This document shows positions 46,499-48,416 of a stretch of 64,000 bases of DNA, one piece after another; the stretch's first letter is position 1; every line of letters begins with the position of its first letter. The notes beneath the pieces were generated by a model. It had not been told where the DNA came from, did no database searches, and saw nothing but the letters and a program-made list of their open reading frames with translations. The DNA is from a phage: the sequence record PX104380.1, one strand, 5' to 3'. The translations under genes were made by a program, and so were the position numbers.

Positions 46499-46529
46499 GT
46501 TGTTTTCTGTATCAGTAGTTGATAGTTGT

Positions 46530-46559
46530 ATAGTACCATAGAAGAACAGGGATGTAAAC
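46530..46559 (-). promoter_or_regulatory. T4-type early promoter with conserved leader
   Basis: Plus atagta at 46530-46535 and tgtaaac at 46553-46559. Confidence 0.55.
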
Positions 46560-46697
46560 AGTTTTGTGAAAAATTTTTTAAAAAGTTTTGGGGAATTCTA
46601 GGGCAAGGAGGGGAAATTAAAGGATAGGATAATATATTATAAAGGGTAGAAACTAAATGATGCCTAGAGAGGCCTGGAAAGGCCTAGATACCAAAAA

Positions 46698-46719
46698 GCC
46701 CCAACCTTTCGGTCGGGGC
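46698..46719 (-). terminator. rho-independent terminator (minus strand)
   Basis: Minus strand GCCCCGACCGAAAGGUUGGGGC followed by UUUUU. Confidence 0.55.
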
Positions 46720-47030
46720 TAAGCCTTGCGGCAACCTTGTCGGGGTTCCACCTGCTAAGGCAAGTGTTTGTACGAAACGCCGGGATTCGAACCCGGTTAT
46801 TAAGCAGTTGACGCTACTCAATATTTTTAAAAGGCCATATCTCGACCATATCCGAACGTTCCGTCAAAAACGCTACTCGGCTTACGGCAAAGATATTTCC
46901 TCGAATCGATAATTCGGTGCGCCGTTTCTGCTGTGATGTAAGAGGGCATCAATAAACGCAAGGATTATTAACGCAATTCCTTACTCAGGGAACATCAGTC
47001 CGACGACTTACCGGTAGCGACCCGGTTTCT
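46720..47030 (-). ncRNA. candidate stable structured RNA with tRNA-like T-arm, downstream of tRNA-Arg
   Basis: No ORF of 60 aa or more; minus strand contains CCGGGUUCGAAUCCCGG (5-bp stem, canonical T-loop) near 46779-46795 and ends at the terminator. Confidence 0.4.
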
Positions 47031-47380
47031 TAATATTCTTTTAAAGCATAAATCTGTTTACGGCGTTCACGCCATAAATCAATTGCTTCATACGCGGATT
47101 CAACATTTCGAATTGGACGGCATTTATATAAAGATTTGTGATTTTGATATTGCGTAGATAACGGAATTTTATCTAAAAGGTCTTTACGTTCAAAGTATTC
47201 GTAACCATCTAAGCCAAATGAACGATTTTTGAGAAATTGCCAATGACCAAATTCGTTTTGAATATAAATATAATCCGCGTGTTGATAAAGTAAATTAATT
47301 TCACGAAATGAGATATGTTTTTCATATTCATTGAAGTAAAATGTTAAATCATGAACTACTAAATAAACATTACCTTTCAT
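47030..47380 (-). CDS. hypothetical protein inside the tRNA region
   Basis: 116 aa ORF between tRNA-Arg and the structured RNA. Confidence 0.45.
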   Translation of the reverse strand: MKGNVYLVVHDLTFYFNEYEKHISFREINLLYQHADYIYIQNEFGHWQFLKNRSFGLDGYEYFERKDLLDKIPLSTQYQNHKSLYKCRPIRNVESAYEAIDLWRERRKQIYALKEY

Positions 47381-47398: not shown

Positions 47399-47474
47399 TG
47401 GTCGAGGCAGTAGGGATCGAACCTACGACCTAGGACTTAGAAGGTCCTTGCTCTTCCTTCTGAGCTATGCCCCG
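47399..47474 (-). tRNA. tRNA-Arg (anticodon UCU)
   Basis: 76 nt cloverleaf by hand folding; acceptor CGGGGCA/UGCCUCG, anticodon loop CUUCUAA, T-loop UUCGAUC, CCA encoded. Confidence 0.85.
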
Positions 47475-47478
47475 TAAT

Positions 47479-47554
47479 TGGGGTGACCGATGGGAGTCGA
47501 ACCCATGACTACGAGAATCACAATCTCGAGTTCTACCAACTGAACTACGGCCAC
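47479..47554 (-). tRNA. tRNA-His (anticodon GUG)
   Basis: 76 nt; anticodon stem CGAGA/UCUCG, loop UUGUGAU, discriminator C73, CCA encoded; no encoded G-1. Confidence 0.8.
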
Positions 47555-47668
47555 ATTAATACCTACTCCAACAATCAAGATGTCTTCACACGAAATTAAG
47601 AGAAGAGTGATCAGTTCAACCCCTATAATCGCGTCAAGTAGATATTAATGTGACAGTTGTCACAAATT

Positions 47669-47743
47669 TGGCGGACGTGATAGGATTCGAACCTATAACC
47701 AATCGCTTAACAGGCGATCGCTCTGCCATTGAGCTACACATCC
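47669..47743 (-). tRNA. tRNA-Asn (anticodon GUU)
   Basis: 75 nt; anticodon stem AUCGC/GCGAU, loop CUGUUAA, T-loop UUCGAAU, CCA encoded. Confidence 0.8.
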
Positions 47744-47747
47744 AAAT

Positions 47748-47834
47748 TGGTGGGGAGTGGTGGAGTCGAACCACCCGAGTCGCAATGACAATGAATTTAC
47801 AGTCCACACCGCTACCTCTACGGGATAACTCCCC
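47748..47834 (-). tRNA. tRNA-Tyr (anticodon GUA), class II
   Basis: 87 nt with long variable arm; anticodon loop CUGUAAA; acceptor GGGGAGU/ACUCCCC; CCA encoded. Confidence 0.75.
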
Positions 47835-47843
47835 AAATTAATT

Positions 47844-47918
47844 TGGTGGCCCTGGGTGGAATTGAACCACCATCTGGCGATTATGAGTCGCTTGCTTGAA
47901 CCTTCCAGCTACAGGGCC
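47844..47918 (-). tRNA. tRNA with CAU anticodon (Ile2 by position, or Met)
   Basis: 75 nt; anticodon loop CUCAUAA; acceptor GGCCCUG/CAGGGCC; CCA encoded. Confidence 0.75.
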
Positions 47919-47919
47919 T

Positions 47920-47995
47920 TGGTGCTGATTAACGGAATCGAACCGCCGACCTTCTCATTACAAGTGAGTTGCTCTACCTACTGAGCTAAATCAGC
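47920..47995 (-). tRNA. tRNA-Thr (anticodon UGU)
   Basis: 76 nt; anticodon loop CUUGUAA; T-loop UUCGAUU; CCA encoded. Confidence 0.8.
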
Positions 47996-48000
47996 AAAAC

Positions 48001-48090
48001 TGGCGGAGGTGATAGGATTCGAACCTATGAATCGCCGGAGCGACTGCCGGTTTTCAAGACCGGTGCATTCAACCACTCTGCCACACCTCC
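48001..48090 (-). tRNA. tRNA-Ser (anticodon UGA), class II
   Basis: 90 nt; anticodon stem CCGGU/ACCGG, loop CUUGAAA; long variable arm; CCA encoded. Confidence 0.8.
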
Positions 48091-48092
48091 AG

Positions 48093-48166
48093 TCTCCATA
48101 CAAGGATTTGAACCTTGGACCTCCTGATCCCAAATCAGGCGCTCTACCAAACTGAGCTACACGGAG
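48093..48166 (-). tRNA. tRNA-Pro (anticodon UGG)
   Basis: Anticodon stem CCUGA/UCAGG, loop UUUGGGA; C1-G72; 3' CCA not encoded. Confidence 0.8.
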
Positions 48167-48176
48167 TAAATTAAAT

Positions 48177-48250
<74 letters not shown>

Positions 48251-48255
48251 AAATT

Positions 48256-48342
48256 TGGTGCGAGAAGTGGGACTCGAACCCACAAGGAAATCATTCCGCA
48301 GCATTTTAAGTGCTGTGCCTTTACCAATTTGACCATTCTCGC
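48256..48342 (-). tRNA. tRNA-Leu (anticodon UAA), class II
   Basis: 87 nt; anticodon stem CAGCA/UGCUG, loop CUUAAAA; long variable arm; CCA encoded. Confidence 0.8.
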
Positions 48343-48343
48343 G

Positions 48344-48416
48344 CTGGGAATAAAGGACTCGAACCTTTGCATCCTGGAATCAAAATCCAGTGCCTTACCA
48401 ACTTGGCTAATTCCCA
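48344..48416 (-). tRNA. tRNA-Gln (anticodon UUG)
   Basis: 73 nt; U1-A72; anticodon stem CUGGA/UCCAG, loop UUUUGAU; CCA not encoded; 1 nt from tRNA-Leu. Confidence 0.8.

Follow-up and report, generated by a model that had tools for sequence, protein, structure and literature searches.

The window analysed here is a stretch of 64,000 nucleotides from a phage (sequence record PX104380.1) that BLAST assigns to Tequatrovirus (T4-like). It carries 11 tRNA genes recognised by ARAGORN on the minus strand at 47399-48416, and beyond them, within 46560-47030, the same program called neither a tRNA nor a tmRNA. The G+C content over 46600-47100 is 43-50%, resembling that of the tRNA cluster; the flanking genes have 27-39%. 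As the initial annotation had stated, no ORF of 60 aa or more overlaps 46560-47030, the longest having 45, 44, 34 and 33 aa, and at the gathering threshold Rfam matched only tRNAs in the window and no family in this interval. The mimic of a tRNA T-arm that had drawn attention to the region, CCGGGTTCGAATCCCGG, is present as described: a perfect 5-bp stem (CCGGG/CCCGG) encloses the canonical 7-nt loop UUCGAAU. The window has a single copy of this 17-mer (46796..46780), on the minus strand like the tRNA genes, and 100 dinucleotide-preserving shuffles gave no match to it with up to 2 mismatches permitted.

On the minus strand, 47040..46500 aligns to the T4 genome (NC_000866) with 96% column identity, the T4 features covered being rnaD, rnaC, the downstream hairpins, the terminator and the e.8 promoter region. 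The T4 record annotates rnaD (species 2) as a misc_RNA at 71053-71171 and rnaC (species 1) as a misc_RNA at 70908-71046. From this alignment the rnaD homologue, of about 118 nt, lies at 47033..46916 (minus strand), immediately upstream of the rnaC homologue of 139 nt at 46909..46771 (minus strand), in which nucleotide n is window position 46910-n. The copies are about 96-98% identical to those of T4. There are few mismatches over the 139 nt of rnaC, where, besides a few other point differences, one A-U of the second hairpin in T4 is a G·U here. The 3' end of rnaD (46915-46920) reads CACCG here and CACCA in T4, so that a CCA-like 3' end is not encoded in the phage studied. As in T4, the order is rnaD, rnaC, hairpins, terminator and e.8 on the strand of the tRNA cluster, with rnaC at the distal end of that cluster, ahead of the terminator and e.8. 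By sequence and synteny the two RNAs are members of the known T4 rnaC/rnaD family. The interval 46560-47030 very probably consists of orthologues of T4 rnaD and rnaC followed by a 3' hairpin module and a terminator, the T-arm being a part of rnaC, near whose 3' end the comparison with T4 places it. Given the 96% identity over the rnaD and rnaC region, the initial guess that this was a counterpart of the T4 stable RNAs was correct. The region had also been taken for one structured RNA element; it is structured, but it holds two separate RNAs, the 3' hairpin and terminator module and about 130 nt of intergenic spacer.

The region does lie downstream of tRNA-Arg, as had been proposed, although not directly: an ORF of 116 aa (47030..47380, minus strand; phrog_3355, similar to RB69ORF150c) is placed between tRNA-Arg and rnaD. 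T4 has no gene at this position and its rnaD begins 2 nt past tRNA-Arg. The stop codon of the 116-aa ORF overlaps the position homologous to the 5' end of T4 rnaD.

The strong terminator described initially was also found. It is an intrinsic terminator of the tRNA/stable-RNA transcription unit at 46692..46720 (minus strand), with a hairpin of 10 pairs (46720..46697), 7 of them G-C, followed by UUUUU. Between rnaC and the terminator there is a 3' trailer (46722..46770, minus strand) with small hairpins, the first being CACUUGC-CUUA-GCAGGUG (46766..46749) and the others AACC.../GGUU and GCC-GCAA-GGC. This trailer is conserved in T4 and in phages without rnaC, gives z = -3.65 when folded together with the terminator, and is presumed from the T4 literature to be a 3'-processing module. 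The motif CCCCGAC occurs twice in 46697-46745 (minus strand), in the hairpin region ahead of the terminator and in the terminator stem, and the upstream copy could compete for the GGUUGGGG strand of the terminator. Just beyond 46560-47030, outside both RNAs, a sigma-70-type promoter-like site (TTTACA-17-TACTAT with TG; 46530..46558, minus strand) precedes the e.8 homologue and is conserved with T4.

Many close relatives (e.g. wV7, locus 1873-2389) carry a cassette with a 157-aa ORF directly past the rnaC terminator, the insertion point corresponding to about 46690 of the window. A copy of the terminator hairpin stands at either end of the cassette, suggesting that gene cassettes are joined by recombination at terminators. 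In the best BLAST matches a "gap" of 557 nt corresponds to an ORF cassette that the relatives carry past the terminator, the RNAs themselves being uninterrupted.

Conserved folds of rnaC and rnaD

Folded as a single sequence, rnaC has a minimum free energy of -50.2 kcal/mol (z = -4.55) and none of 200 shuffles was as stable. The fold was evaluated on an alignment of 26 distinct sequences, collected by BLAST of phage genomes and by pattern scans of IMG/VR, from Tequatrovirus, Gaprivervirus (VR7), Karamvirus (PG7), Moonvirus, Gelderlandvirus (Melville), Kanagawavirus (IME523, PEi20 and Kosakonia phage 305), a Klebsiella-phage clade, an Erwinia phage and IMG/VR contigs. The structure is a four-way junction in which the T-arm forms one arm. 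The initial annotation had reported a T-arm without a full cloverleaf; a tRNA cloverleaf is indeed absent, but the T-arm belongs to a junction that is cloverleaf-like.

The junction is closed by an acceptor-like stem (46908..46902 with 46779..46773, minus strand) that pairs nucleotides 2-8, CGAUUCG, with 131-137, CGUUUCG. Its 7 positions comprise two invariant U·U mismatches with 5 standard pairs around them, 100% of its cells are paired, and pair 4:135 alternates between A-U (10 sequences) and G-C (16). The long arm (nucleotides 9-78; 46901..46832, minus strand) has several helical segments on a base of AGG/CCU and ends in an apical 6-nt loop, UUGACG (46867..46862); 11 of its 20 pairs have changed on both sides, including 4 of the 6 in the tip stem. 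An A-rich linker of 8 nt leads to the second hairpin (nucleotides 87-112; 46823..46798, minus strand), a 10-bp stem with the loop CGUCAA at 46813..46808, in which both sides have changed in 9 of the 10 pairs. After A113 comes the T-arm (nucleotides 114-130; 46796..46780, minus strand), CCGGG-UUCGAAU-CCCGG, in the middle pair of whose stem 11 sequences have G-C and 13 have U-A. The T-arm runs straight into the 3' strand of the closing stem, which is followed by the tail UA(CAA).

Over the whole of rnaC, 93.8% of the pair cells in the 26 sequences are standard, against 37-45% in controls in which the pairing partners were slid by 1-3 columns. Changes on both sides are seen in 27 of the 52 pairs, every helix has at least one compensatory change, and in 500 shuffles the observed pairing, number of double-change pairs and covariation score were never matched. 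Several unpaired or non-standard features are invariant as well: A113, the A-rich linker, the tandem U·U, A12·G75, the tail positions U138, C140 and A141, and the T-loop for the most part. Two Kanagawavirus-type sequences (including IME523, locus 700-842) have the T-loop UGCAUGC while the stem and the remaining RNA are intact, and the T-loop may therefore not be strictly required.

rnaD has no T-arm. It has an invariant 5' hairpin with the loop GUCGCUA, an equally invariant closing helix, GUCGUCG/CGGCG(C)AC, and a helix NGUU/AGCN. On this otherwise invariant scaffold the tip of the apical hairpin (46935-46985) occurs in at least four versions that are unrelated in sequence, a pattern resembling cassette exchange. 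In a model built on 18 distinct homologues 96.2% of the cells are paired, compared with 33-50% in slid controls, and 6 pairs have changed on both sides, among them a swap from U-A to A-U in six sequences. The minimum free energy structure of RNAfold proposed another helix, CUG/CAG with AUG/CAU, which is paired in only 86% across the homologues; NGUU/AGCN was preferred because it is 97% paired and includes the U-A to A-U swap. On this comparative evidence the folds of rnaC and rnaD are both demonstrably under selection.

The apical loops of the long arm and of the second hairpin of rnaC, UUGACG and CGUCAA, are exact complements in 26 of 26 sequences. The six loop-loop pairs taken alone are 100% paired, against 16-51% in slid controls. 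In the Klebsiella-phage clade the loops become UUGGCG and CGCCAA, an A-U replaced by G-C at exact partner positions; outside this change both loops are invariant while the stems below them vary. A kissing interaction of 6 bp, either within one molecule or between two, is thus likely in rnaC, though the grade stays below that of the folds since the loop covariation is a single event in one clade. The two hexamers might instead be half-sites (TTGACG and CGTCAA) of an inverted repeat recognised in the DNA by a protein, with no contact in the RNA, and such a repeat would co-vary in the same way. This is improbable, as both hexamers coincide exactly with the apical loops of hairpins that have covarying stems, and the half-sites would be some 48 nt apart, an unusual spacing for an operator.

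Distribution among T4-like phages

The region is carried by more than 750 phage records and rnaC by at least eight groups of T4-like phages. A covariance model of rnaC finds a single copy in the window, with 158.5 bits, and exactly one copy per genome in general (117-160 bits); true tRNAs obtain weak scores of 12-22 bits because the acceptor/T-arm geometry is shared. Searched in gathering and E-value modes, Rfam has no family for rnaC or rnaD. The weak matches returned, RT-6 (E = 0.057), isrK, anti-hemB and tRNA-Sec, are far under their gathering scores and were set aside as chance. No new loop variant came out of the IMG/VR pattern scans for distant relatives of rnaC; among the matches listed in the metagenome scan most were chance, again with no new loop variant. 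The rnaC family appears to be confined to T4-like phages of enterobacteria.

The two RNAs occur independently of each other. JS98 and VR20 have rnaD, and rnaC was not found in them even when the search was run unfiltered; in JS98 the 3' hairpin module follows directly on rnaD. The reverse is true of PG7, Moon, Kanagawavirus, Melville and the Klebsiella clade, where rnaC is present and rnaD absent. RB69 (Mosigvirus) has both, unannotated, at locus 1657-1915. From this pattern of presence and absence rnaC and rnaD are independent modules, gained or lost separately. Moreover, in PG7, Moon, Melville and the Erwinia phage COW86c rnaC is placed in the middle of the tRNA array, 5-6 nt past the CCA of the preceding tRNA and separated from it by a conserved spacer of the AAUUA type. 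The next gene, for tRNA-Gly, follows after 8-12 nt in PG7, Melville and COW86c and after about 4 nt in Moon.

A second element of about 135 nt is found right after rnaC in Kanagawavirus (PEi20, locus about 750-890; IME523, locus about 846-985). It is closed by GAUUUGU/ACAAAUC and has a T-arm-like hairpin, GUAGG-UUCGAGC-CCUAU. Neither ARAGORN nor Rfam made a call on it and its fold energy is no better than that of shuffles (z = 0).

These arrangements bear on whether the RNAs do anything once they are released. The region could be a purely cis-acting module for the 3' end of the tRNA operon, giving protection from exonucleases and processing sites, and the RNAs cut from it would then be functionless. 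It would suit this reading that T4-type genomes have rnaD and rnaC as the final elements ahead of the terminator and that conservation of the 3' hairpin module does not depend on rnaC. It is nevertheless improbable as a full account, given that rnaC lies away from the 3' end in the four phages with a mid-array copy, that its elaborate fold, invariant loops and tandem U·U are kept across genera, and that rnaD and rnaC come and go as separate units. The mid-array location in several genera, the invariant non-helical features and the locked body argue that rnaC acts in trans.

Likeness to tRNA, probable processing and possible function

rnaC resembles tRNA (RF00005) in its canonical T-arm, with a 5-bp stem and a 7-nt loop of the UUCRANY type, adjoining a closing stem of 7 positions, in its location in a tRNA array and in its four-way junction. 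Unlike tRNA it lacks a D-arm, an anticodon arm and an anticodon, it has two U·U in the stem, and in most members its 3' tail has UACAA in place of NCCA, the Klebsiella-phage clade having UCCAA. In agreement with this, the Rfam tRNA model did not match in the region, and in E-value mode tRNA-Sec gave only a weak match to rnaC (16.6 bits, E = 2.1; gathering score 47). Nor is rnaC a tmRNA as judged by ARAGORN and Rfam, neither of which returned one, and it has no tag reading frame. An acceptor/T-arm "top half" on a body that is not a tRNA is known from the tRNA-like domain of tmRNA, from mascRNA (released by RNase P) and from the tRNA-like structures of plant viruses. By analogy with such domains, rnaC would plausibly be handled by the enzymes that act on tRNA ends, although it shows no sequence or model match to them with ARAGORN or Rfam and mostly lacks an encoded CCA.

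A more literal tRNA-like reading was considered for the 3' part of rnaC. The tRNA-Sec alignment and the tRNA-Met called in PG7 led to a 93-nt structure with an 8-bp acceptor, ACGGAACG/CGUUUCGU; ARAGORN makes the PG7 copy a tRNA-Met of 95 nt with these same two segments, and the GenBank record has it so too. This pairing is possible in T4-type sequences only. In PEi20, Kosakonia phage 305, Melville and the Klebsiella clade the acceptor segment differs and pairs locally, with covariation, below the UUGACG loop. Since the segment cannot pair with the 3' end in those clades, the tRNA calls are false positives and the reading was rejected.

The suggestion in the initial annotation that the T-arm might be a remnant of a tRNA fares poorly. 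A decaying tRNA gene without selected function would leave a canonical T-arm within a tRNA cluster, could account for the weak tRNA-Sec match and the tRNA-Met call on the PG7 copy, and might show a degenerate T-loop of the kind seen in IME523. The whole fold is, however, kept across genera, with compensatory changes in all helices and invariant loops in at least eight phage groups, and the supposed acceptor is not conserved, its segment forming a covarying local stem in other clades. Decay is therefore unsupported and very improbable.

Annotation of these RNAs in the databases is uneven. rnaC is often mis-annotated as a 95-nt tRNA-Met (PG7, locus 1554-1648) or as tRNA-OTHER, and in many GenBank records a "hypothetical protein" CDS is overlaid on rnaC and rnaD. 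That the region encodes small proteins, for which these CDS annotations in relatives and the 44-45 aa ORFs of the minus strand could be cited, is hardly credible: the small ORFs begin with TTG codons located in helices and extend across the T-arm and the terminator, the substitutions between genera are paired stem changes and not codon-wise, in PG7 and Moon the rnaC sequence is followed directly by tRNA-Gly, and T4 itself is annotated with misc_RNA.

How rnaC might be made can be pictured from T4 and from its anatomy. RNase P model substrates are recognised by this enzyme, as by tRNA-end enzymes, when they consist of the acceptor/T-arm top half. RNase III has been implicated for the T4 species 1 RNA, which possibly contains T and pseudouridine, and RNase III, RNase E or RNase P in the processing of the T4 precursor. 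The acceptor-like stem and T-arm of rnaC form such a top half, the long arm and the 10-bp hairpin standing where a tRNA has its D and anticodon arms. As the acceptor/T-arm helix is the feature recognised by RNase P and the tRNA-end enzymes, rnaC is probably cut from a polycistronic precursor and trimmed like a tRNA, and the hairpins 3' of it probably supply the 3' entry cut. The idea in the initial annotation that the T-arm could recruit tRNA-processing enzymes fits this anatomy, that is the adjoining acceptor-like stem and the position in the array. The predicted product is compact, about 140 nt long and of tRNA-like stability, and would accumulate in infection. Both RNAs would be co-transcribed with the tRNAs, as is reported for T4: a passage of PMC2330249, citing Broida and Abelson, has the transcript of the cluster promoter span all tRNAs and end past the species I gene, and the resulting precursor is described there as one RNA for the tRNAs and both stable RNAs. 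In T4 infection RNAC is detected by Northern blot, and both RNAs are classed as late-accumulating (PMC9697503).

The function of the T4 stable RNAs is still called unknown in PMC3014915, PMC9697503 and PMC12685909. One tentative proposal is that mature rnaC, as a mimic of the tRNA top half, occupies or titrates a host factor that acts on the acceptor/T-arm of tRNA. Against the tRNA-like account of rnaC as a whole stand the two U·U in the acceptor-like stem and the tail, which lacks NCCA in most members, and also the viability on laboratory strains of T4 mutants in which the tRNA region is deleted. As for rnaD, the same single mutation in it was fixed in all lines when a T4-like phage underwent evolution on a semi-permissive strain of E. 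coli (PMC12685909), which is in line with a role of rnaD in host fitness. A wider proposal, equally speculative, would have rnaC act in trans as a top-half mimic locked by its kissing loops, and rnaD as a separate module whose swappable hairpin tunes host-specific fitness. In this proposal rnaC may, for example, occupy a host enzyme or a defence nuclease that recognises the acceptor/T-arm of tRNA.

The presence of these RNAs carries little weight as a discovery, since the species 1 and 2 RNAs of T4 have been known since the 1970s, about fifty years, and are annotated in its genome. Judging by the literature examined, four points may be new: the fold derived by comparison, the complementarity of the loops, the modular distribution and how often the RNAs are mis-annotated. 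The practical value lies in RNAs that have no Rfam family and are annotated as hypothetical protein, tRNA-Met or tRNA-OTHER, or not at all. The comparative model offers a concrete fold that can be tested, with a four-way junction, an invariant tandem U·U and complementary apical loops. Phage tRNA clusters are now being re-read as counter-defence loci, and rnaC and rnaD, as independent modules with different host-range distributions, would provide a handle on function.
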